Virus record (IMG/VR): IMGVR_UViG_3300038365_000169
Length of the DNA: 64,000 nt
From: an uncultured virus (IMG/VR IMGVR_UViG_3300038365_000169)
Lineage: Duplodnaviria; Heunggongvirae; Uroviricota; Caudoviricetes
Strand: one strand, 5' to 3'
A program made the translations under genes and the position numbers. Position 1 is the stretch's first letter, and each line of letters starts with the position of its first letter. Shown here piece after piece: positions 1-38,852 of the stretch. Below the pieces are notes generated by a model. That model did not search any database, had not been told where the DNA came from, and saw nothing but the letters and a program-made list of their open reading frames with translations.

Positions 1-804
1 CGTCTTGCCCTAACTGTGGACGGCCACCTCACCTACTGCACCGCATCAGAGGAGAGAATCGGCAAGGGCCGATGCAACCATGTCACCCATCAAAGGGACA
101 ACGAAAGCCAGCAGCAGTTTGTGGAGCGCATCAGCATACTGGAGGCTGATGACGTAAAGCGCGTCAAGCAGGAGCAGAAGGCTGTTGCCAAGAGCAACCA
201 GGGCATACTCAGCTGGATCAAAAACCTAGGCTCCCCAAGGGTTCCAGCATCACTGGAGGCTGACAAGAGCCTTTCCGAGCAGGAGAGGCGTCTTGCAGCT
301 GACCGCTTATTGGCCGCCAAGTTCGAAAGGCTGGACCTGGAGGGCGAGGGTGAACCAGAGCCCCTGGTGGACCATGAGTCTGTGGTGATAGACATTGAGT
401 CCAGGTTTGTCAACTTCTTTTACGACGAAACGCACTATGTGCATCTGACCCATATGCGTTCCTGCGACACACCGGAGGAGAACATGGAGGCCATCAAGCA
501 GGCGGTGCAGGAGATCACACTATGGAACGAATGGGGTTTTGACAAGATTGCCGTTCAACTGCAGCTGCTGCATGGGTTCATACTTGACCCAGAGGTGCAT
601 GCCGAGATCAAGGGCATAGGGGTCGGGTTGGAGTTTGAGTACTATGACTTCAGAAACCCCGAGTTAAACAAGATTGCCGCCAAGTTTGAGGAAATAAGGG
701 ACCAACTCCCCATCATGGTGGACCATGTCACACCTGCCGCCATAGACCAGCTGCATGGCGCTCTTTTGGCTGCCGGCCTTCTGGAGCAGCTTGCGGGTCT
801 ATAG
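1..804 (+). CDS. Hypothetical protein with N-terminal Cys/His tag shared with RNAP set-2 subunits (probably 5'-partial)
   Basis: Frame is open from base 1: RLALTVDGHLTYCTASEERIGKGRCNHVTHQ, matching the N-termini of 24101..26416 and 21799..23991. Confidence 0.75.
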   Translation, partial: RLALTVDGHLTYCTASEERIGKGRCNHVTHQRDNESQQQFVERISILEADDVKRVKQEQKAVAKSNQGILSWIKNLGSPRVPASLEADKSLSEQERRLAADRLLAAKFERLDLEGEGEPEPLVDHESVVIDIESRFVNFFYDETHYVHLTHMRSCDTPEENMEAIKQAVQEITLWNEWGFDKIAVQLQLLHGFILDPEVHAEIKGIGVGLEFEYYDFRNPELNKIAAKFEEIRDQLPIMVDHVTPAAIDQLHGALLAAGLLEQLAGL

Positions 805-1053
805 CTTCATCGCTTCCTCCAGGGTGACCCCATACTCCTCCAGCAGAAACTGCTCTGCTTCGTCCATAAAGTTGTCTACTGCGTCATTTATCATGGCGTT
901 TCTGGATATGCTGGTGCCGTTAATCCTGGCAACAGCCTCCTTTATGGCGTCCAAATGTTCGATAGCATCCTCCTTTAGATAAACGGCAACCTGCTTGCTT
1001 TTGCCCTTGCGCTCCATCTCCATAAGGTTTTTCAAGCTCTTCTCCAGAACCAT
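799..1053 (-). CDS. Ribbon-helix-helix (CopG/Arc-like) DNA-binding protein
   Basis: 84 aa; KQVAVYLKEDAIEHLDAI...ISRNAMINDAV strand-helix-helix pattern. Confidence 0.55.
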   Translation of the reverse strand: MVLEKSLKNLMEMERKGKSKQVAVYLKEDAIEHLDAIKEAVARINGTSISRNAMINDAVDNFMDEAEQFLLEEYGVTLEEAMKL

Positions 1054-1205
1054 TCACCTGCCCTTCATTATTTCTTAATAGTTCATTGTATTGGCCTGAT
1101 GTTAAACGACCAATGAATGCAATATTACGTAGATTTTAACCTTATATTTGCTGATATATACCTTGCTCTGATGGTTTTAGGTGATGCTCTGACGAACCAT
1201 TTGCA

Positions 1206-1643
1206 TTATTCAACTTCGAGTTCAACCTCTCTACGTATGCGAAGCCTCGTGTTCACACTAAGGCTGTTTGACTGTATTACGCCAGGTATGATCGAAGCGT
1301 CATTTCTCTGGGTGGCAAGAATGCAATGCATGCCGGAGCTTCTTCCCAGCTGTGTGATGGACTTTATCAGTCCAACGATCTCCTGCTTTAGTGCATCCTC
1401 CTCCTTGCCCTCAAGGGTCTTTACCCCGGAGGGTTCTATGAGCTCCGCACACTCGTCCAGCACGCATAGGCACCTGGGGCCGATGTCGTCCGAATATACC
1501 CTTCTGTACTGCGTCTTCCCCAGTGGTACAAAATTTTCGCACCCGGGAAGCCGTATCTGAAGGCCTAAAGGTTTTATCCTCTTTACATGCTCCGCTTGAT
1601 CAACCTCTGCTTCTCTCTTGCTCTTGAGACCAAACATTAGCAT
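1206..1643 (-). CDS. FtsK/SpoIIIE-like ATPase fragment (Walker B part) with intein-N-like C-terminal tail
   Basis: LCVLDE Walker B; QLGRSSGMHCILATQR FtsK motif; no Walker A; ends IQSN-SLSVNTRLRIRREVELEVE*. Confidence 0.75.
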   Translation of the reverse strand: MLMFGLKSKREAEVDQAEHVKRIKPLGLQIRLPGCENFVPLGKTQYRRVYSDDIGPRCLCVLDECAELIEPSGVKTLEGKEEDALKQEIVGLIKSITQLGRSSGMHCILATQRNDASIIPGVIQSNSLSVNTRLRIRREVELEVE

Positions 1644-2062
1644 TCACCTCCTTTTAACATACATTTAAGCATCTGCTTGAATTTTCTTTCGCCAACCGTA
1701 TATGACTTTGGATCACAGTTTGGGAACAATATAAGGCTGCCGTCTAGCAATATGCTGTACTGCTTAAAAACTTTGTCATATATTAATACCACATCCTCTG
1801 GACTGCTGGATGAGTATCTTTCAAAAATGTACTTAACTGCAAAATTGCGGTCATCTATATCCCTTAAAAGTAAGTTGCTTCCCACCGCAACCTCTAAAAA
1901 TTTTACAACCCTCTTGGCAAACTTGGATAACCTGTCCATGCTAATTTTCTTGATAACCCATTGAACCACTAGGGTGGCAACAGAGCCTAGAACCACCAAT
2001 AAAAGGTCCTTTAATATCTCTAAGTCAAAATTTTGTGCAATAAAATTTAACAATGACCTCAT
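1637..2062 (-). CDS. Hypothetical membrane-anchored protein (AT-rich)
   Basis: 141 aa, one hydrophobic segment near N-terminus, overlaps neighbours in operon. Confidence 0.55.
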   Translation of the reverse strand: MRSLLNFIAQNFDLEILKDLLLVVLGSVATLVVQWVIKKISMDRLSKFAKRVVKFLEVAVGSNLLLRDIDDRNFAVKYIFERYSSSSPEDVVLIYDKVFKQYSILLDGSLILFPNCDPKSYTVGERKFKQMLKCMLKGGEC

Positions 2063-2506
2063 CTACATCTTCCCCACCATCTCAAATCTTCCGTCCAAAA
2101 GTACAGGTGCCATTAAGCCATTTATTTCGTCCTTAAACACCATTTGAGTGATTGGTTTGCACAGATAAATGCCCTTTCCGTGTAAGTATGCGTCATACAT
2201 CTCAAGGAAGGTAGCACCGCCAATATAGCCTGATTCTGGTTCGTCTTCGAAGTTTACCACCAGAACAGCATCACATGCTAGAATTTTCTGGTGGTTTTCT
2301 TGATGCATAAGCCTTTTGAAGACAAGATGACCCTCAACTCCCCTATTTTTGGCCTCAAACTCAGCATAGGGGTTTTCAATGCTGTTGGGCAGCTGAACTT
2401 GATGACCGTTGGCCTCAAGAATCTGCACAACAAAACCCACATGTTTGTAGTTTTTCTTGCTGCATATGACAAATATGTTCAATGTGTTACCTCCTTTCAC
2501 ACGCAT
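2063..2506 (-). CDS. Nucleoside 2-deoxyribosyltransferase-like protein
   Basis: ILACDAVLVVN...GYIGGATFLEMYDAYLHGKGI pattern typical of this fold. Confidence 0.55.
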   Translation of the reverse strand: MRVKGGNTLNIFVICSKKNYKHVGFVVQILEANGHQVQLPNSIENPYAEFEAKNRGVEGHLVFKRLMHQENHQKILACDAVLVVNFEDEPESGYIGGATFLEMYDAYLHGKGIYLCKPITQMVFKDEINGLMAPVLLDGRFEMVGKM

Positions 2507-2518
2507 GGCATGTTACCT

Positions 2519-2734
2519 TTACACTAAAGCGTGCAGAACTCCCTCATTTAGGGCGGCCAGGTTTCTCTCCACCAGGCTGTATACAAGCTCCCCGGCATAG
2601 TTGGGAGAAACCTGTAGATGCTTTCCTAGCTCGTTAATGCCGATTCTGTTGTCAAATTCCTTGATGCACATGAGCGCCACCACTGCCTCCGGTCGGAGGT
2701 TGGACACCCTGGCAGCTATCATTCCGTAGTCCAT
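2519..2734 (-). CDS. Small winged helix-turn-helix protein
   Basis: IGINELGKHLQVSPNYAGELVYSLVERNL. Confidence 0.55.
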   Translation of the reverse strand: MDYGMIAARVSNLRPEAVVALMCIKEFDNRIGINELGKHLQVSPNYAGELVYSLVERNLAALNEGVLHALV

Positions 2735-2755
2735 TTCAAAAATGCACCCCTTTCA

Positions 2756-3571
2756 TTATAGTACGTCCACCATTTGGTCCACCCATATGGCCTTGCCGCC
2801 ACCGGTGGAACCTAGCGTTAGGCACTGCGGTGCGGATGGTAGCCTTAATGTTTCCGCATGCTCCCCATCCTCTGAAATGTAGCTGCTGAATCCCATTTCC
2901 TTCTGGTCAGCAAGGTTCCAGCATATCTCCACATTGCCGCCGCCTAAACCCAAAGGTATCCATCCGGCAGGTCTGTAGTCACTGCCTGGAAAGTTGGCTA
3001 TGGAAGGTGGCTTGGGGAGGCCCTTATAGATTAGCTGCCTGTTTGGTGCGTCATGCTCGCTCGTCCACTGCAGCTCGGGAAAGTACTTGTTTAGGCTGTA
3101 CTGCGTGTATATGATGCTGTTGTCGTTTATCTTTAGCCCCGGAACGGAGGTGTCAATTACGATGCTGTTCACCACATGAATCTTCCTGTCCTCCTCAAAT
3201 TTGAAGGGGGTGTTGGCAAAGTCGATATCCTCCACACCTACCGCTCCAAAAATGTCCGCCATGGACTGGTATAGCTTGATGATTTGGTCGTGCTCATGCT
3301 GTATCTTCTTCTCGCGGTTGTTGTTCACTATGATAAGTACCATCAGATAGACCGCTCCAACCACCAGTGAGACCAACAGCATCCTGCCCTGAAATAGCGG
3401 TATCTTGGGCAGCAAAATCTGAAAAAGTATGGATGAGACAAAACACAGGAATATCACCAAAGAGTCGCTTCTGCCAAACTCTAGGGTGCTGTCCGTTGGT
3501 GCTGCCTCATTCTTCTTGTTGGTGATGGTCACTGTGAGCAGCAGTGCCAGCACAAATAGTGCAACTATCAT
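2756..3571 (-). CDS. Membrane-anchored FtsK/SpoIIIE (TcpA-like) N-terminal fragment ending at Walker A plus 11-aa intein-N-like tail
   Basis: 3 TM segments; WIPLGLG; PQCLTLGSTGGGK then AIWVDQMVDVL-stop. Confidence 0.7.
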   Translation of the reverse strand: MIVALFVLALLLTVTITNKKNEAAPTDSTLEFGRSDSLVIFLCFVSSILFQILLPKIPLFQGRMLLVSLVVGAVYLMVLIIVNNNREKKIQHEHDQIIKLYQSMADIFGAVGVEDIDFANTPFKFEEDRKIHVVNSIVIDTSVPGLKINDNSIIYTQYSLNKYFPELQWTSEHDAPNRQLIYKGLPKPPSIANFPGSDYRPAGWIPLGLGGGNVEICWNLADQKEMGFSSYISEDGEHAETLRLPSAPQCLTLGSTGGGKAIWVDQMVDVL

Positions 3572-21798: not shown

Positions 21799-23991
21799 TT
21801 AGTTTATTATTTGGTTTGCTGCATCCGTGTCAAGCCTTTGCTTGACGGGTCTGGTTAGGGTGCCATATCCGGAGCTGAGCTCCACAGCTTTGAATATGTT
21901 GTTCGCATTCCCAACGGCACCTATGGAAACAACATCAGCCCTCTCGCCCTCCTCCACTGGACGCAGCCCGTTCTTGTCCCTCTTGTAGGAGGTCATCTTC
22001 TTCGCTATCATCTGCAGGTTGAAATCATCCTGCTTGATGTTGGATTCCTCATACTGCCTCTTTAACCCCTCGTACAGAATCTTTCGCATCTCCTCCGTGG
22101 TGTGTGCCTCTCGCATCTCCTGCACTATCGGGCTGGTGCCCCATCCGTCCAGTGTGGCCATGATGATGGCTGCGGAGCTCTGCTTGCTCATGGATGCCAT
22201 GGTGCCGGTGTTGTGGGAAAGAAATGGGCCCACGTCATACACCCCGGTGTTGGTGGTGATGCATCTAACCCTGATGGGTTCGGCGCCAAACCTTTCAATG
22301 AACTCCAGTGGAACATGGGCGCCATATGGTGTGGCAATGTCCACCTCATGACCCTGGTTGACAGCCTCCATTAGCTCCTCTGCACATACCCAGCTGTCAT
22401 CCTCACCTGCCCCCACATCATTGCGGATCTCCTTGCTGACCTCAAACTGACCGTTCATCCTTTGGCCGTTTTTGTCATAGACATCTGCCATCACCAGATG
22501 GGTGTCAGAGCAGACAAGCTCAGCGCCAGATGCTACCATTCTGTAGCCAACCCTGAGGTCCCAGTCTGTTATGTCTAGAACCAGTGCACCGTTTGGGAAC
22601 TGGTCACCAAGCTCCAGCTCGGACCATGAGATGGTTAACGTTTTGCCCTTTCTGCTGATGTCAACCTCCTGATTCTCCCATATGGGGTGCTTCAGCTCCA
22701 TGCTGGCCTGCGTTAGGCCCTCTGAAAGGTTGGTGCTGATGACACCTCCAACCAGCTGGCCCTCCCTTACCACCTCCCCACCCTTGGTCATATGAGCGCA
22801 ATGAACGCATACATGACCGTTGGGAAGCTTGCAGTGCATGGCGTCCACATAGGGGCCACCGCAGTCAGACATCACCTGTGTGTCAGAAACTGCATAGAAA
22901 AGCTTTCTGGCCGTGTTGTGATGCACCATACCGTTGGTCTCGTAGAACCCGGTGTCGGTGCTGATGCAGCGAACAACCTCAACCCCAGCGTCCACAACGT
23001 CAAGTAGCTCCCTTTGCGTGCTGAGAAGAATTTTGGCCCCATGCTGATGCATGAATAAAATGTCCTCCGCGCACACCCAGTGGTTGTCGTCCTCGCCTAT
23101 GGCCTCACGTGCTCTCTTGCTGGCGGCTAGGTTCTCCACCCTCTCGCCGGCAATGATGATGTCGGCTAGAACCAGATGGTCATATGAAACCGTAACGGGA
23201 AGGCAGTCCATTACCTTTAGGGTCACGCACTGCTTCTCCTGCCAGTCACGTATCTCCTCCACGACAGAGCCGTCCTCAAACTGGTCCCCAACGTTTATGT
23301 CGGACCAAAATACGCTCCCAAGCTGTCCGTCCTCCAAAATGCCCACCTGGCTGTTCCTTGATATGCAGTAACCAGGTTTGCTGGTGCCGACACCCTTGGT
23401 GATCATGGCGATGCGTGCGTAGTACTGCTTGGCAAAGTACTCCCTTTCGGTTAAACCCTGCGCATAGCTGTGCTTTACGTCCACCATTTCGCCGTTATGT
23501 GTGGGAGTTTGGCCCACCTTGTCAAACATCTGGGTGATGGCGGATGTGCTGCCGCCCACACCGTACTTGTGCAGGTTGGTGAAGTATAACTTGTTTTTAA
23601 CATTTGTGTCCTCATATTCCTCCTCCCGGATGGGTAATGAGAACACAGGTGCGGCGTTAAAACCGATCTTGGATATTTCGTCAATCTGCTCAGGTGAGAG
23701 ATCTGCCATGACCTCCCTAAAGTTTTCCTTGGTAACCTTGCAGCCTGCAATTTCGTCAATTTGCTTCGCCAGCTGGTCTACCTCCTTCTGCGTGATCTCC
23801 CTGGCTACAGCAGCAGAGTCAAAAGTTCCGTCATCATGAGCTCTTTCCCCAATGCGTTTGACGAAATCCTCAGGGCTCTCACCAGCTTCCTGATGGGCAA
23901 CATGGTTGCACCTGCCATGACCCCGTAGCTCGGGAGGAGAGGTGCAGTAGGTCAGCTCGCCGTTAACGTTCAACGCTAAGGTTTTTTTCAT
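21799..23991 (-). CDS. RNA polymerase beta'-like C-terminal subunit (set 2) with N-terminal Cys/His tag and two mini-inteins
   Basis: SYAQGLTEREYF...AR...TSKPGY^TARKL (bridge helix); CVHC; GVISTNLSEGLTQASMELKH^TG (trigger loop); about 420 aa after splicing. Confidence 0.85.
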   Translation of the reverse strand: MKKTLALNVNGELTYCTSPPELRGHGRCNHVAHQEAGESPEDFVKRIGERAHDDGTFDSAAVAREITQKEVDQLAKQIDEIAGCKVTKENFREVMADLSPEQIDEISKIGFNAAPVFSLPIREEEYEDTNVKNKLYFTNLHKYGVGGSTSAITQMFDKVGQTPTHNGEMVDVKHSYAQGLTEREYFAKQYYARIAMITKGVGTSKPGYCISRNSQVGILEDGQLGSVFWSDINVGDQFEDGSVVEEIRDWQEKQCVTLKVMDCLPVTVSYDHLVLADIIIAGERVENLAASKRAREAIGEDDNHWVCAEDILFMHQHGAKILLSTQRELLDVVDAGVEVVRCISTDTGFYETNGMVHHNTARKLFYAVSDTQVMSDCGGPYVDAMHCKLPNGHVCVHCAHMTKGGEVVREGQLVGGVISTNLSEGLTQASMELKHPIWENQEVDISRKGKTLTISWSELELGDQFPNGALVLDITDWDLRVGYRMVASGAELVCSDTHLVMADVYDKNGQRMNGQFEVSKEIRNDVGAGEDDSWVCAEELMEAVNQGHEVDIATPYGAHVPLEFIERFGAEPIRVRCITTNTGVYDVGPFLSHNTGTMASMSKQSSAAIIMATLDGWGTSPIVQEMREAHTTEEMRKILYEGLKRQYEESNIKQDDFNLQMIAKKMTSYKRDKNGLRPVEEGERADVVSIGAVGNANNIFKAVELSSGYGTLTRPVKQRLDTDAANQIIN
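22210..22686 (-). mobile_element. Mini-intein 2 (159 aa, Pro1 start) in beta' trigger loop
   Basis: Starts PIWENQEV; block B CSDTHLV; ends VRCITTNTGVYDVGPFLSHN then Thr; removal restores MELKH-TG. Confidence 0.82.
22915..23367 (-). mobile_element. Mini-intein 1 (151 aa) in beta' bridge helix
   Basis: Starts CISRNSQV; block B VSYDHLV; ends VRCISTDTGFYETNGMVHHN then Thr; removal restores GY-TARKL; no endonuclease domain. Confidence 0.88.
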
Positions 23992-34172: not shown

Positions 34173-35412
34173 GCTTTCCTCCCTCCTTCTTGTATAAATT
34201 TACTAACTGTGATATATGTGTGACCTCCCTGCCGTCCAGGGTGCCGTTGTTAATTTTGCCGTTTAAACGTATCTCACCCTTTGCTTTGACCACCTCTGAT
34301 TTGCCGTAGTATGAGCTTAATATGCTGTTGGCCATGGCTAGCTCCACAGATATGTCGTCAGTGTAAAGCCCGTTGCTGACCGCTACATATATGTCCTTGG
34401 CATTCAGATTTAGCCTGCTGTAGTATGAGAGTATCCCCACCAGCTGAATTAACCTGTTTTGGTTGTATCCGTTGCTCTTCCTCATGCCAAATGAGCTCTG
34501 TGAGTCTGCTACCAGAGCCTCAATGGCTATGGTCATCACCTTATGGCCGAATCTGGTCTCGGTGTATGTGGCACCAACCTCACTTTCGGGGTTCATATGG
34601 TCCACATCTACCTCAACAAAGCCGTCAGCTCTGTGCTGAAATACCGCAACAGAGCCAATCTCGCCGTACCTGTTCTTGGATGATGTTGCTATGATGTTGG
34701 AGGAAACCTCAGAACGCTCCAAATGCATCACAGTGTCCACTATGTGTATGATGGAGTTCATACCGGTGATTTCCCCCGCTCTGGTTACCTGGCTGGTGAT
34801 GACCGCCACCTTGTTCGTCTCCTTCACCACCTTGGTGATTTGGTTGGCGAATTTGGCCACAATGGCGTAGCCAACACCAAATTCGATTCCGTTCAAGGAG
34901 TCCACAATTACAAGCCTGCCGTCAAAGGTTCTGATTGCCTCCAAAATGGCCTGGATGCTGGTGCTGTTCATGATGCGCACCCTTCTGTTTGCCTTGATGC
35001 GTAGCGCGCGTTGGTTCACCTGCTTGAAGTTTTCCTCCGTGCTGATGTAGAGCGTTCCCTCGTCAGCTATGGACATGCACAGGGTGCTTTTGCCGACCCC
35101 GGGTGATGCCCCCATTAGGCAAACTTGGGCCTCCACAAACCCCTTGGCGGAGGATATGATGGCGTTCAAGCCGGGGTAGCGGGTTGCAACCACCGCTTCC
35201 TCCTCAGCTTCGTCAGGATTGATGGAACGAATTTCGTTAACTATGGGAGGTCCGTTGTACTCGAATCCAACCTGATGAAATGCATTGTTGGTTTGGCTGT
35301 TAGGTTCATCTTCTGATACCTCTACTCCAGTTCCATCCCTGCACTTTGGGCAAAGACCAAAATATCTTGGTTGCTCATAGCTGCAAATATCGTTATTGCA
35401 TCTCCAACTCAT
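34165..35412 (-). CDS. radA: DNA repair protein RadA/Sms
   Basis: C4 zinc finger, GASPGVGKSTL, STEE, VDS, KNRYG, Lon-like C-terminus. Confidence 0.88.
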   Translation of the reverse strand: MSWRCNNDICSYEQPRYFGLCPKCRDGTGVEVSEDEPNSQTNNAFHQVGFEYNGPPIVNEIRSINPDEAEEEAVVATRYPGLNAIISSAKGFVEAQVCLMGASPGVGKSTLCMSIADEGTLYISTEENFKQVNQRALRIKANRRVRIMNSTSIQAILEAIRTFDGRLVIVDSLNGIEFGVGYAIVAKFANQITKVVKETNKVAVITSQVTRAGEITGMNSIIHIVDTVMHLERSEVSSNIIATSSKNRYGEIGSVAVFQHRADGFVEVDVDHMNPESEVGATYTETRFGHKVMTIAIEALVADSQSSFGMRKSNGYNQNRLIQLVGILSYYSRLNLNAKDIYVAVSNGLYTDDISVELAMANSILSSYYGKSEVVKAKGEIRLNGKINNGTLDGREVTHISQLVNLYKKEGGKHV

Positions 35413-37481
35413 GGTAGCTTGATCACCTCCATCTCCTTTATGTCAAAGTCGTAGATAAAAATTTCACCGCGCTTCTTGATGAATGGCGAGTACACCAACG
35501 TCATCTTAACCAGTGAGTTTTTAACCAGCCTTCTGGCGTCCTCCACGAGAGGGCCGGTGGCGTATAAGATGTCTGAACAGTTGTTAAAGTGGAGGGTTAG
35601 CTTCACAGACCTGCCGTTGCCGTAGGTGAATGAGTCCTCCACCAGGGCATAGATGTCATAAAATGTGTTCCTTCTTTCATCAGAATAGTACTCCCTCATG
35701 TAGCTCTTTAGATGGTTGCACATCAGGTCGTATGCCTTCTCACCCCTGCCATTCTCATATGCCTTGCTTTTGATGTTGTTTAGCTGTGTTTCAAGCATGC
35801 TGTAGTCAATGTCCGGTAGGTCCGAAAGTAGGCCGTTTCTGACAGCTTTGAACTTTTTAAGGTCATATCCCACCTTTTGGGCACGTACCTCATCGTTGCT
35901 CTCTGGGTAAAAGAACACTGAGTTGGGCTCACCGCGTGCGCGACGAACTTTTACCTCTATGACCCCCTTTTCGTTCTTGCTCCAGTCAACTATGCCCTCG
36001 CAAAGCTTTAATCCGTCCAAAATTTGCTCCAACCTGTTGAACTTGACCCCAGGAGGCTCCATAAATAGTGCCTGCTTCTTGGCCTTGGATAGAAGTGTGG
36101 TGGCAAGCTCCGCTAGACCCAGCCTGTTGCCGCTTAGCCTGTCACATACGCCCTGATATATCAGGTTGGCAACAGGTATCTCTTCATCAAAAAGAAATGA
36201 AACATAGCTGTCAAAACTTTTTTCAGCCTCTATTGGTATCCAGAGGGTTGCGCGCTTATGCCCGTTATGCTCCTCCTCGGTGATTTTAAACCTCTTTTCC
36301 CCCATTGTTTCAATGTTGGGGTAGTTCATACGTATGCCAAGCTCCTTGCACTTGGCCATGGCCAGCGCATAGTTTTCCTTGGTGCCGTCGTTCAAGCAGT
36401 ACTCAAGAACGTCATTTTTCTGGTAGGTCCATAGCTTGGCTGTCGCATATCCTATGATGGCATATGCAACACTATGGCTCTTGTTGAATGCATAGTGCGC
36501 GAAACCGGCTAATGCCTCCCAAACCTTCTCGGGGTCGCCAGCTTGGTTCCAGTTCCTGATGAAGGGTTCCTTCCACTGTGCCAGAATTTCGTCATCCTTC
36601 TTGCCCATGGCCCTTCTGATCTCATCAGCTTCCGTCATGGTGAAGTTGGCGCAGTCCTGACATATTCTCATTACGTCCTCCTGGAATATAACCAGGCCAA
36701 CGTGCTCCTCACCAAATGCCTTCTTCAGCACCACAGAAAGAATTTTCTCCTCATCCGTGAACTGTGGGTCCTCACCGGTCTTTATCCTGATGTACTTCTC
36801 CACAAAGCCGGCCTCAATGGGACCGGGTCGCCAGAGTGCTATGATGTCAGCAATTGCAAGTATGTTCCTGGGCTGGGTGCTGACCGCAATTCTGTTCATC
36901 CCGGGTGAGCCCATTTGGAAAACAAAATCGTTATCACCATTGCATATGGTCTGGTAGACGTTTGGGTCATGAACGTCATTCCAGTCATAGTCAATGCCGT
37001 AAAAATGCTGTATCATGTCCATCGTGGTGACGGTTAGTATGTCATATTTGATGTACCCAAACTTTTCCAGGTCTGAACCGTTAAACATGACGGTGCCGTC
37101 ACGAACAGGTACCGGCGCCTCTCCATCTATCATGATGACGCCAGATGCAGCTGTGGACTTGTTGTATGGTATTTTGTTGTACCTGTAGCAGAAGCCCATC
37201 TTGGCCTCCACCATGTCCCAGTGGTCCTCCCAGTCGAACTCGAACATCTCGCAGGCACCCTTTAACCATCCGGTGTAGGTTTTTTCCTCCAATTTGTCCG
37301 AAAACTCCTTGGTGATGCGGTTTACATCCTCATATGCTATGCCGTACCACTTCGCAACATTCTTGAAAAGTACCAAGGTGGTGGCGCGTACCTCATTCTG
37401 GATGTATCCTGCAAAGGTAAAGTCCCCACGCTCCACCAGCTTGTTCATTATCATGTTCCTGGATGACTCCATGCACTTCAC
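35409..37481 (-). CDS. dnaE: DNA polymerase III alpha, C-terminal fragment
   Basis: AASGV, IKYDIL, VFQM, ALWRPGP, IFQEDVM, ADEIRRAMGKK, YAFNKSHSVAY. Confidence 0.9.
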   Translation of the reverse strand: MKCMESSRNMIMNKLVERGDFTFAGYIQNEVRATTLVLFKNVAKWYGIAYEDVNRITKEFSDKLEEKTYTGWLKGACEMFEFDWEDHWDMVEAKMGFCYRYNKIPYNKSTAASGVIMIDGEAPVPVRDGTVMFNGSDLEKFGYIKYDILTVTTMDMIQHFYGIDYDWNDVHDPNVYQTICNGDNDFVFQMGSPGMNRIAVSTQPRNILAIADIIALWRPGPIEAGFVEKYIRIKTGEDPQFTDEEKILSVVLKKAFGEEHVGLVIFQEDVMRICQDCANFTMTEADEIRRAMGKKDDEILAQWKEPFIRNWNQAGDPEKVWEALAGFAHYAFNKSHSVAYAIIGYATAKLWTYQKNDVLEYCLNDGTKENYALAMAKCKELGIRMNYPNIETMGEKRFKITEEEHNGHKRATLWIPIEAEKSFDSYVSFLFDEEIPVANLIYQGVCDRLSGNRLGLAELATTLLSKAKKQALFMEPPGVKFNRLEQILDGLKLCEGIVDWSKNEKGVIEVKVRRARGEPNSVFFYPESNDEVRAQKVGYDLKKFKAVRNGLLSDLPDIDYSMLETQLNNIKSKAYENGRGEKAYDLMCNHLKSYMREYYSDERRNTFYDIYALVEDSFTYGNGRSVKLTLHFNNCSDILYATGPLVEDARRLVKNSLVKMTLVYSPFIKKRGEIFIYDFDIKEMEVIKLP

Positions 37482-37577: not shown

Positions 37578-38852
37578 TTAGGGATTAGCAATTGATGAAA
37601 AGTCCAAGTCAATGTCAGGATAACCTGGTCTGCCTGGGTTAAGAAATCTTTCGAAGTATAACCCGTACTCCAATGGGTCAATTTTGGTGATTCCCAGAAG
37701 GTTGCATATTTCGCTGCCCGCGCCGGAGCCACGGCCTGGTCCGCATAAAATGCCAAGCTCCCTTGCAACATTGATAATGTTCAAAACCTTGATGAAGTAC
37801 TGGCTGAAGCCCTTGCTGTTTATCACCTCAAGCTCATATTCGTACCTTTCAAGGCTTTCCTGTTCCCTCTCGGTGCCCTTTCTGAGATGCTCCCAGCCCT
37901 CATTACAAAGCCTTCTTAGCTCCTCCTCGCAGTTTATCAAAGGCTTGGCATGTGGAAAGTCAAAGCTGTCACACATCCCTTCCACAATTTTGATGTTTTC
38001 CAGCGCTTGGTCCAAATAGGGTACAATTCTGTCATCCTGAACTAGGCCGTAAAATTCGCTTTCATCCATCATGTGGCAGTTTTCCCGAAAGCTCTCTATT
38101 GCTTTGGCTGCAAATATGTTGCAGAAAAGTCTGTAGTCCATCTTGTCGATCTTGTTCACATACCTGCAGTCGTTCACAGCAACCAAAGGAATGCTTAAGC
38201 TGAGGAAGAGCTCCACCATCTCAAGGGATGTGTCAATCTCCACCTTGCCGAATAGATTGTCCCCGAATGCTTCTAGGTACCCCTCAAGTGCAAGCTTGGC
38301 ACCATTCTGATTCCCATGTGACATCATGTATTGAAGGTCACTGTCATAACCACCTGCTAAACAGACCAATCCGTTGGCATGGTCAAAAATGTCCTGCTTT
38401 AGTGACAGATACTCGTCGTCAAACATGAATGACTGGCTGTTGTAAATTTCAAATAAATTCTTGAGTCCGCTCATATTTCTGGCCAATAATGTGACCACAT
38501 GAAACGGCACTGGGTCCACTGTCTCTAGCTCCTGAAGCTCCCTTTGGATCCTTATTTTGTCCTCATCCGTTGTTCGCTTCAGGTTCATTTCGTTGTTTAA
38601 AGCCCTTTTACGCTCTAAAACAGCGTATGAGGATATTTCGTCCCCAGGATGCATCATGGCGTCCAAACCCTGAATGAACTTCATGCCGGCCTTTTTGGCC
38701 ACCATTGCGCCCTTTATGCACTCCGTTAGGCTGTTTTGGTCCGTGATGCAGAAAGCGGTCTCCCCCATTTCCTGGGACCTTTTGGCTATCTGCTCCACAT
38801 ATGCTATGGATTGCTTGTAGCTGTACACGCTATGACAGTTTAAATGTAGCAT
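37578..38852 (-). CDS. dnaE: DNA polymerase III alpha, N-terminal fragment (PHP domain and first palm motif)
   Basis: HLNCHSVYS, ITD, GPGRGSGAGS, LYFERFLNPGRPGYPDIDLDF then stop. Confidence 0.9.
   Translation of the reverse strand: MLHLNCHSVYSYKQSIAYVEQIAKRSQEMGETAFCITDQNSLTECIKGAMVAKKAGMKFIQGLDAMMHPGDEISSYAVLERKRALNNEMNLKRTTDEDKIRIQRELQELETVDPVPFHVVTLLARNMSGLKNLFEIYNSQSFMFDDEYLSLKQDIFDHANGLVCLAGGYDSDLQYMMSHGNQNGAKLALEGYLEAFGDNLFGKVEIDTSLEMVELFLSLSIPLVAVNDCRYVNKIDKMDYRLFCNIFAAKAIESFRENCHMMDESEFYGLVQDDRIVPYLDQALENIKIVEGMCDSFDFPHAKPLINCEEELRRLCNEGWEHLRKGTEREQESLERYEYELEVINSKGFSQYFIKVLNIINVARELGILCGPGRGSGAGSEICNLLGITKIDPLEYGLYFERFLNPGRPGYPDIDLDFSSIANP

Follow-up and report, generated by a model that had tools for sequence, protein, structure and literature searches.

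Two ORFs that encode pieces of an FtsK-like ATPase lie on the minus strand of the window (the whole 64-kb stretch of DNA that was analysed), with three AT-rich ORFs between them. The features of this locus are listed below. The pieces of the ATPase are numbered according to the four-piece layout of relatives, which is described in a later section.

1206..1643, minus strand: FtsK/SpoIIIE-family ATPase piece 3 (ORF of 145 aa, or 143 aa from the ATG at 1637)
1209..1265, minus strand: intein-like tail of piece 3, residues 127-145, with Ser at position 1 (alignment, matrix scores)
1305..1313, minus strand: TQR sensor, residues 111-113 (ORF translation, alignment A1)
1452..1472, minus strand: Walker B strand, residues 58-64, with D63 and E64 (alignment A1)
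1644..1653, minus strand: strong Shine-Dalgarno sequence before the ORF 1206-1643 (read from the sequence)
1637..2734, minus strand: three inserted ORFs, AT-rich, between pieces 1 and 3 (ORFs, GC content)
1637-2062, minus strand: inserted ORF of 141 aa with a membrane helix (ORF)
2063-2506, minus strand: inserted ORF of 147 aa, resembling nucleoside 2-deoxyribosyltransferase (ORF)
2519-2734, minus strand: inserted ORF of 71 aa, weak MarR-like winged helix (ORF)
2756..3571, minus strand: piece 1, 271 aa, with membrane helices, N-domain and P-loop (ORF)
2759..2791, minus strand: 11-residue tail of piece 1 after the P-loop lysine (ORF, relatives)
2792..2812, minus strand: P-loop of piece 1 (ORF translation)

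The rest of the window is also nearly all minus strand. It encodes DnaB, a primase, a DNA polymerase III alpha in two ORFs, topoisomerase subunits, several RNA polymerase beta/beta'-like ORFs, two T2SSE ATPases, an RcpC/CpaB-like protein and a TrwB-like coupling protein, a gene content that suggests a large phage or an element like one. The stretch is present in fermentation metagenomes of three studies, and relatives are found on contigs with a length of 144-250 kb.

The translation of the ORF 1206-1643 consists of a variable leader, a beta-rich stretch, the Walker B strand, the TQR sensor, the motif IQSN and the intein-like tail, which is followed by the stop. The initial annotation had described a stand-alone ORF with Walker B and LATQR but no Walker A, ending in IQSN and a tail. 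This was confirmed in the translation, in which there is no P-loop and 19 residues separate IQSN from the stop codon. D63 and E64 were invariant in the 26 sequences of alignment A1, and LATQR was found only once across the six frames of the window. Translation probably starts at ATG 1643 or at ATG 1637. The second of these codons shares bases with the TAA of the ORF 1637-2062 upstream, an overlap that suggests coupled translation of the ORF 1206-1643.

Kinship with FtsK was analysed by profile searches and alignment. The Pfam family PF01580 (FtsK_SpoIIIE) scored 15.6 bits on the ORF 1206-1643, under the cut-off of 24, and PHROG 1358 ('FtsK/SpoIIIE-like') matched it with an E-value of 9e-12. 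Three full-length relatives (P0081, P0075 and P0069) align along the whole ORF, and P0081 (78 bits) and P0069 (65 bits) lie above the PF01580 cut-off. Two features of FtsK/SpoIIIE proteins, Walker B and TQR, are present in the ORF 1206-1643, and the P-loop (2792-2812) is on a separate ORF. The ORF 1206-1643 is a piece of an FtsK-like enzyme, not a whole member of the family. When phage GenBank records were searched by tblastn, this ORF matched 22 records with distant FtsK-like sequences (31-38% identity over about half of the length), and no match was obtained with the N-fragment 2756-3571. No relative was found in IMG/VR by scans with both fragment proteins and alignment A1, and the GTDB genomes yielded one weak locus only (L017).

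The GC content of the stretch between the two fragments is 0.37-0.43, as compared with about 0.50 around it, in agreement with the three unrelated, partly AT-rich ORFs that had originally been noted there. In L001, the closest relative with DNA context (64% identical to the ORF 1206-1643, alignment A4), pieces 1 and 3 are only 3 nt apart. This indicates that the three ORFs of the window are an insertion, i.e. a passenger cassette between pieces 1 and 3. Searches of the three ORFs against Pfam, PHROGs and NCBIfam gave nothing solid and nothing like a homing endonuclease. The likeness to nucleoside 2-deoxyribosyltransferase (Atlas feature score of 0.95) is a lead only, and a PDB sequence search with the ORF 2063-2506 gave no match. 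Flanking repeats were not found at the borders of the insert, and promoter and terminator scans remained at chance level. The possibility that the three ORFs are a disguised piece 2 was rejected, as no profile matched them.

The tail of the ORF 1206-1643

The first 12-15 residues, approximately, of the tail are intein-like and are followed by an acidic extension that is not conserved, as is the case for the last five residues. One question raised by the initial annotation was whether this tail is the normal N-x-x-x-R stretch of FtsK proteins. In a MAFFT alignment that included intact homologues, it was placed on the intein starts of P0069, L004, P0023 and P0020, and not on that stretch or on any other part of the native continuation. 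A matrix of intein starts was built from 28 contiguous inteins of the tail's family (positions 2-12, with no tails included), and the tail of the window scored +6.2 bits on it, a score that was reached by only 9 of 10,000 shuffles of the tail. Scores on this matrix were positive for 23 of the 27 tails defined below and negative for the other 4, and 13 native continuations scored from -26 to -40. A second matrix was built from the 13 native FtsK continuations, with offsets of 0-5 allowed. On this native matrix the tail of the window scored -7.0 bits and the tails as a whole scored from -4.8 to -21.5, versus +36 to +43 for the native sequences. The tail is homologous to intein starts and, judged from these comparisons, it is the putative N-terminal piece of an atypically split intein (S1 site).

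The tail had originally been likened to the start of 'intein 1', which is located at about 23367 (minus strand) within a different gene, the ORF 21799-23991. This comparison did not hold, since the likeness does not go beyond that of a generic block A and the tail appears to belong to a different intein family, of the class 3 type. It is the tail of the N-fragment 2756-3571, not that of the ORF 1206-1643, that resembles an 'intein 1' type start.

The layout of piece 3 is conserved in relatives. Intein-free short forms like that of the window were found in a metagenome scan (L001, L002, L003 and L006, 138-142 aa). A word-index search, which covered only proteins longer than 254 aa, provided 25 further relatives of 257-468 aa, with 40-75% identity (alignment A1). 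These longer relatives are the same stand-alone piece 3, lengthened by an intein: 19 of the 25 contain an intein with Pro at position 1 (Pro1) immediately before TQR, where the copy of the window has none, and four contain another intein type a few residues after that site. A short tail after the conserved Asn, as in the ORF of the window, terminates 22 of the 25. Two others (P0020 and P0023) continue past the equivalent of IQSN into an intein body and stop inside the intein, without its last block; when the intein body of P0023 was used as query, no protein other than P0023 was retrieved. The tail of the window, those of the four loci and those of the 22 proteins make up a set of 27 (26 besides the window). 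In all 27 the stop occurs 13-33 residues past the junction, and the first residue of the tail is Pro in 17, Ser in nine (the window included) and Cys in one.

The intein and its partner genes in relatives

A HMMER search with the N-fragment 2756-3571 among 1.84 billion representatives provided 58 relatives, 14 of which were examined in sequence. Two of the relatives, P0081 (597 aa) and P0075 (599 aa), are intact and free of inteins. P0069 (746 aa) is otherwise intact too, but about 145 extra residues are inserted directly after the equivalent of IQSN. This insert starts like the tails, its last two residues are His-Asn, and behind it come a Cys and native sequence. At the same site, native sequence continues in the proteins that lack the intein (P0081, P0075, P0090, P0095 and P0106).

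The C-terminal 122 residues of P0069 were used for a search among shorter proteins, which gave 27 matches, 15 of them examined in sequence. Five of these are stand-alone partners of 250-256 aa (P0084, P0086, P0094, P0096 and P0101). They open with Met and a few basic residues and are in register with the P0069 intein from about the 17th residue onwards, a point that coincides in the alignment with the end of the tails. What follows in each is the remainder of the intein up to its terminal Asn, then Cys at +1 and the C-terminal part of the ATPase. P0084 is 100% identical to the end of P0069, indicating that the whole and the split forms of this intein occur in close relatives. The clade of the partners is distant from the window (its N-side pieces are 32-33% identical to the ORF 1206-1643, alignment A2), and a tblastn search for partner-like sequences in the loci of the closer clade (L001-L008, 1.9-20 kb long) found none.

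The type of the intein was analysed with these partners. A profile of the five, searched against the PDB, matched the class 3 DnaB inteins 6rix and 6riy (E-value of about 4e-8) and 6bs8 (5e-6), and the matches began at residue 17 of the chain. An AlphaFold model of P0084 had block-mean pLDDT values of 64-92 for residues 1-133 and below 50 for the C-extein part. The same three structures were the top Foldseek matches of the model (6rix, 6bs8 and 6riy, with target TM-scores of 0.53-0.67), followed by the Prp8, gp41-1, VidaL (6vgv, 12th) and AceL NrdHF (6zgq, 13th) inteins. Five residues are invariant in the five proteins: His52 of block B, Trp54 two residues further on, Cys108 of block F, Asn132 at the end of the intein and the +1 residue, Cys133. 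The WCT signature of class 3 inteins consists of Trp at position 12 of block B, Cys at position 4 of block F and Thr at position 5 of block G; in the partner family, Thr precedes His-Asn in four of the five partners and in P0069. Profile, model and motifs indicate that the intein body of the partner family is predicted to be of the class 3 type, with the solved class 3 DnaB inteins as its closest counterparts. A complex prediction of residues 96-145 of the ORF 1206-1643 with a stand-in partner intein from the other clade gave scores of 0.00, 0.51 and 0.10.

According to the accessible text of PMC2807308, a class 3 intein can do without a nucleophilic first residue, and the prototype of the class, which starts with Pro, splices. 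This accounts for the Pro that is found at position 1 of most tails. The same text reports Ser or Cys at position 1 in 3 of 37 WCT inteins, so the Ser1 of the window is compatible with class 3 membership.

Unrelated passenger genes occur between the pieces, and the same intein is whole in some phages and split in others.

Pieces of the ATPase in the window and in relatives

The N-fragment 2756-3571 ends 11 residues after the P-loop lysine. In 42 of its 58 relatives the P-loop was recognised by pattern, and 34 of these stop 9-17 residues past the lysine; these 34 tails begin with Ala (23), Ser (10) or Asp (one). Alignment alone does not separate the 11-residue tail of piece 1 from the native helix. 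The tail is most likely the N-piece of a second split intein that would belong to another family, given that the native helix is encoded again after the intein in L004, L008 and P0064. L004 consists of three adjacent genes, namely piece 1, an intein body with piece 2, and a piece 3 that runs into an intein. Piece 1 of L004 ends 14 residues after the P-loop lysine, and the middle gene encodes a leader, an intein body ending in His-His-Asn, a Ser and the native post-P-loop helix before its stop. The order in L008 and L002 is intein body with piece 2, an SSB-like gene and piece 3, and in P0064 the first intein (that between pieces 1 and 2) is contiguous.

No signs of an intein were observed at the break between pieces 2 and 3, which is also present in intein-free relatives (P0073 and P0078 with P0090 and P0091). 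This indicates that the enzyme tolerates non-covalent assembly. As read from the gene sequences, the enzyme of these relatives would comprise four pieces, with two split inteins of different families, both with short N-pieces, and one intein-free break; at least four intein insertion sites were seen in the ATPase family. The initial proposal, that three or more genes together encode the ATPase and that orthogonal split inteins, non-covalent assembly or both unite their products, is therefore supported for the family as a whole, as far as its sequences can tell.

The initial annotation had also stated that the segment between Walker A and Walker B and the C-terminal part of the ATPase are absent from the window, and two kinds of search agree with this. 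Only the two known fragments were found when the window was searched by tblastn with nine relatives, and none of the matches of the middle-piece, C-terminal-piece and intein-body profiles to the six frames of the 64-kb window was better than E = 0.85. Neither the arginine-bearing stretch of the ATPase nor a cognate gene with the remaining intein, the terminal Asn, the +1 nucleophile and the C-extein was found in the 64-kb window. The conserved strand that contains this Arg, located on the missing piece 4, presumably carries the arginine finger. L001 has pieces 1 and 3 adjacent with no piece 2 between them and, hence, a complete ATPase was not seen in the clade of the window. Since the partner genes are absent from the window, we infer the splicing of the ORF 1206-1643 product from homology, conservation and the needs of the ATPase fold.

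Proposed assembly, alternatives and comparison with known systems

The explanation that we regard as probable is that the ORF 1206-1643 encodes the third of about four pieces of the ATPase, and that its tail is the first hairpin of a split intein that splices on piece 4. The enzyme would be a membrane-anchored ATPase of the FtsK/SpoIIIE family, to which piece 1 (2756-3571) would bring the membrane part and the P-loop, and piece 3 (ORF 1206-1643) the Walker B motif and the TQR sensor. As in relatives, piece 2 would supply the C-part of an intein and, after it, the helix and strands that lie between the two Walker motifs, and piece 4 would supply about 130 intein residues, the +1 Cys, the strand with the conserved Arg and the C-terminal domain. 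The tail of the ORF 1206-1643 would form the first beta-hairpin of an intein that is split right after this hairpin (the S1 site), and it would dock into the incomplete Hint fold of piece 4. In an intein of the class 3 type, the block F cysteine would attack the Asn126-Ser127 bond, the N-extein would move to the +1 Cys and the terminal Asn would cyclise, so that pieces 3 and 4 would become one chain. The second split intein, of another family, would join pieces 1 and 2, and pieces 2 and 3 would be held together non-covalently at the break without an intein. Partner genes in the genome of the window itself, and splicing there, are what the sequences of relatives would lead one to expect.

Alternatively, the tail might be the remnant of a former intein after a truncation of the gene, and the ORF 1206-1643 might be a relic or might have acquired a new role. 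This would agree with the fact that pieces 2 and 4 were found neither in the window nor in the short loci of the closest clade, and with the ends of P0020 and P0023 within the intein. However, the state of the genes argues against decay. The arrangement of the fragments is not an accident of assembly, since contigs of other runs and of a second study agree with it: one contig of another run covers positions 54-3560 without any difference, and contigs of the second study bridge both junctions of the insert. The P-loop, Walker B and sensor residues are intact, and the ORF 1206-1643 retains its strong ribosome-binding site and the overlapping stop and start codons. The ORF, the position of its stop and the tail are kept across the 27 sequences, at saturated synonymous sites. 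The decay of the fragments into pseudogenes, which had been named at the outset as a possible objection, was evaluated through dN/dS against L001, the only pair for which dS was computable. The values were 0.18 for the ORF 1206-1643 and 0.25 for the N-fragment, and they are rough because dS (about 1.9) is saturated. With a dN/dS of about 0.2 at saturated dS, the sequence comparison indicates that the ORF 1206-1643 is under purifying selection. Among strain variants (contigs with a depth of about 4-6), five of six were synonymous in the ORF 1206-1643, with none in the tail, and two of three in the N-fragment; in the two larger inserted ORFs, three of eight distinct variants were synonymous and one 7-nt deletion was present. 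We consider a remnant of this kind unlikely.

Another alternative is that the tail and the C-part of the intein only bind each other, holding pieces 3 and 4 together non-covalently without splicing. In P0073 and P0078 with P0090 and P0091, no intein is needed at the break between pieces 2 and 3, and the Pro1 of 17 of the 27 tails rules out the standard first step of splicing. Against this, all the catalytic residues tested (His and Trp in block B, Cys in block F, the final Asn and Cys at +1) are kept in the five partners, and the class 3 prototype splices with its Pro1, according to the accessible text of PMC2807308. Furthermore, contiguous Pro1 inteins of the same family as the tail are located inside the P-loop and directly before TQR in 24 relatives, and inteins at such positions must splice for the ATPase to work. 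Binding without splicing is thus a rather improbable outcome.

A further reading, in which the residues beyond the conserved Asn are ordinary FtsK sequence and a plain stop or a sequencing error truncates the gene, is very improbable: P0081 does have a T-R-hydrophobic motif three residues after the Asn that, shifted by three, is partly tail-like, but the tail scored far below native sequences on the native matrix and was aligned to intein starts by MAFFT, both the intein start and, further along, the native stretch are present in P0069, independent contigs of two further studies match the sequence across the stop of the ORF 1206-1643, and the frame downstream of 1206 does not encode the native C-terminal part.

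Within the preferred explanation, i.e. a split intein that splices pieces 3 and 4, a more far-reaching claim is put forward only tentatively. One FtsK-like motor would be assembled from four genes with the aid of two orthogonal split inteins with ultra-short N-pieces (11 residues, and about 12-15 functional ones), one of the inteins being the first natural class 3 intein split at S1, and a further break in the motor would have no intein. If this is true, the C-piece of the intein of the ORF 1206-1643 would hold the catalytic Cys together with the whole active site, and the N-piece would serve for docking only, as a hairpin in which Pro, Ser and Cys are all tolerated as the first residue. With its 11 residues, the tail of piece 1 would also be shorter than the natural record of 15 residues quoted in the accessible text of PMC13014065. 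Split inteins with short N-pieces are wanted for the semisynthesis and labelling of proteins, because a peptide of that size is accessible by chemical synthesis, and few natural ones are known. A class 3 version would have all of its chemistry on the large piece, and the peptide would need no nucleophile as its first residue. Such a split design is different and possibly more tolerant, and dozens of natural variants that begin with Pro, Ser or Cys are available in the family. The ATPase family also shows the extent of intein invasion and gene fission in one essential ATPase.

The natural atypically split inteins described in the accessible text of PMC13014065 and PMC11766414 have N-pieces of 15-37 residues. 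VidaL (16 aa) and PolB16 (15 aa, called the record) are split after beta-strand 2 (S1), and AceL-TerL (25 aa) and GOS-TerL (37 aa, Ser1/Cys+1) are split after the first helix. The ORF 1206-1643 resembles these four in the short N-piece at the end of the N-extein, in the large C-piece and in the phage or metagenomic origin of the genes. The S1 split of VidaL and PolB16 after beta-strand 2 corresponds to the point where P0084 and the other partners begin, and the Ser1/Cys+1 pair of GOS-TerL would also fit the window if its partner keeps the +1 Cys. The differences concern the class of the intein and the host protein. As far as these texts go, VidaL, AceL-TerL and GOS-TerL are class 1 inteins and PolB16 is a cysteine-less one, whereas the family of the ORF 1206-1643 has a class 3 signature and mostly Pro1. 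The host protein is an FtsK-like ATPase here and a terminase or polymerase there, and kinship with these inteins was compared by fold only.

The best matches of the partner body are found among class 3 DnaB inteins, represented by the Bethlehem DnaB intein of a mycobacteriophage (the Pro1 prototype), MchDnaB1 (6rix, 6riy) and Msm DnaBi1 (6bs8). Judged from the available parts of PMC2807308 and PMC7664689, the features in common are the block B Trp, the block F Cys and the Thr that usually precedes His-Asn and, for the 17 of 27 tails that begin with Pro, a non-nucleophilic first residue, which is Pro in the prototype. Unlike the intein of the ORF 1206-1643, which is split after about 12-15 residues and resides in an FtsK-like gene, the class 3 DnaB inteins are contiguous. 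The partners also differ in having a +1 Cys, which according to the available text of PMC2807308 is present in only one WCT intein without an N-terminal nucleophile. The AceL NrdHF intein is likewise metagenomic and split and uses the class 3 mechanism (PMC7891396, in the part available), but its break is located where endonucleases are usually inserted (98 + 48 residues, as given in the available part of PMC11766414) and not after the first hairpin. In the accessible text of PMC7891396 it is the only natural split class 3 intein described; no split form was present among 1701 class 3 inteins, and further atypical ones were expected.

The closest parallel for the host gene is found in the fractured genes of environmental phages (PMC2677866, in its accessible part), in which an essential gene is broken at an intein and the halves are set apart, with other genes between them. 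The locus of the window differs from them in that the gap between pieces 1 and 3, the place where piece 2 belongs, contains no recognisable homing endonuclease, and in that about four pieces make up the gene, which has inteins of two families and a further break without one. A natural class 3 intein split at S1 or an FtsK protein with a split intein was not found in the literature searched, which covered few subscription journals. Atypically split inteins and fractured phage genes are already known, whereas three aspects appear to be new: an S1 split in an intein of the class 3 type, a first residue that varies, and a host gene in four pieces.

Intein sites in relatives of the ATPase

Among the relatives P0001-P0029, P0042, P0063 and P0078, a single class-3-like intein family with Pro at position 1 occupies three sites of the same ATPase, which differ between phages: within the P-loop, directly before the TQR motif, and after the conserved Asn. 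Two further sites of this ATPase are taken by a second intein family.

The site before TQR is also where a second FtsK-like gene is broken in L006, a 183-kb relative. Its two ORFs are:

L006 12872-13705, first ORF, ending within the intein, past a block F-like stretch
L006 13780-14292, next ORF, with just 8 residues, ending His-Asn, before TQR

Judged from its sequence, the 8-residue start of the second ORF would be an ultra-short intein C-piece. The relatives P0020 and P0023 end similarly to the first ORF, at the site after the conserved Asn that is studied in the FtsK piece.

Other intein-bearing and divided genes in the window

Two inserts with intein matches were found in one further ORF, for which Pfam returned zero matches:

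21799-23991 (-), 730-aa ORF containing both inserts
~23388-22909 (-), insert 1 ("intein 1")
~22683-22189 (-), insert 2

Both inserts match the inteins of P0064, a relative with a contiguous intein after the P-loop, and of P0018, with E values of 1e-11 to 4e-24.

DNA polymerase III alpha is encoded in two ORFs separated by a gap of 96 nt:

35409-37481 (-), ORF
37578-38852 (-), ORF

The first of the two stops directly past a PDIDLDF-type motif. No intein-like ends were visible on these two ORFs, and the split looks like plain gene fission.

Passenger ORFs and the left end of the window

In the contig of one run (depth ~5), 7 nt are missing at position 1900, a loss that would frameshift the inserted 141-aa ORF, and non-synonymous variants are many in the passenger ORFs of the insert. 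This suggests that these ORFs are under weaker selective constraint than the FtsK pieces. One of them resembles nucleoside 2-deoxyribosyltransferase-family proteins (0.95 by language-model features), with no match in Pfam, NCBIfam, PHROGs or a PDB sequence search:

2063-2506 (-), 147-aa ORF

The assembly graph of the run that is probably the source contains a node of 77 nt (positions 7-83) that is twice as deep as the nodes around it; two contigs lead into it and two lead out. This means that the window's left end runs across a repeat, and that the sequence joined at 1-83 follows one of two alternative paths. The repeat is a stretch conserved at the start of the genes of one family, and a member of that family also adjoins the FtsK piece of L006.

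The tail of the N-fragment

The FtsK N-fragment ends in a short tail:

2759-2791 (-), 11 residues after the P-loop lysine

The same ending occurs in 34 of the 58 relatives, with Ala at position 1 in 23 of these 34. In sequence, the tail resembles the start of the "intein 1" type. If it were a working intein N-piece, its 11 residues would fall below the natural record of 15 residues given in PMC13014065.
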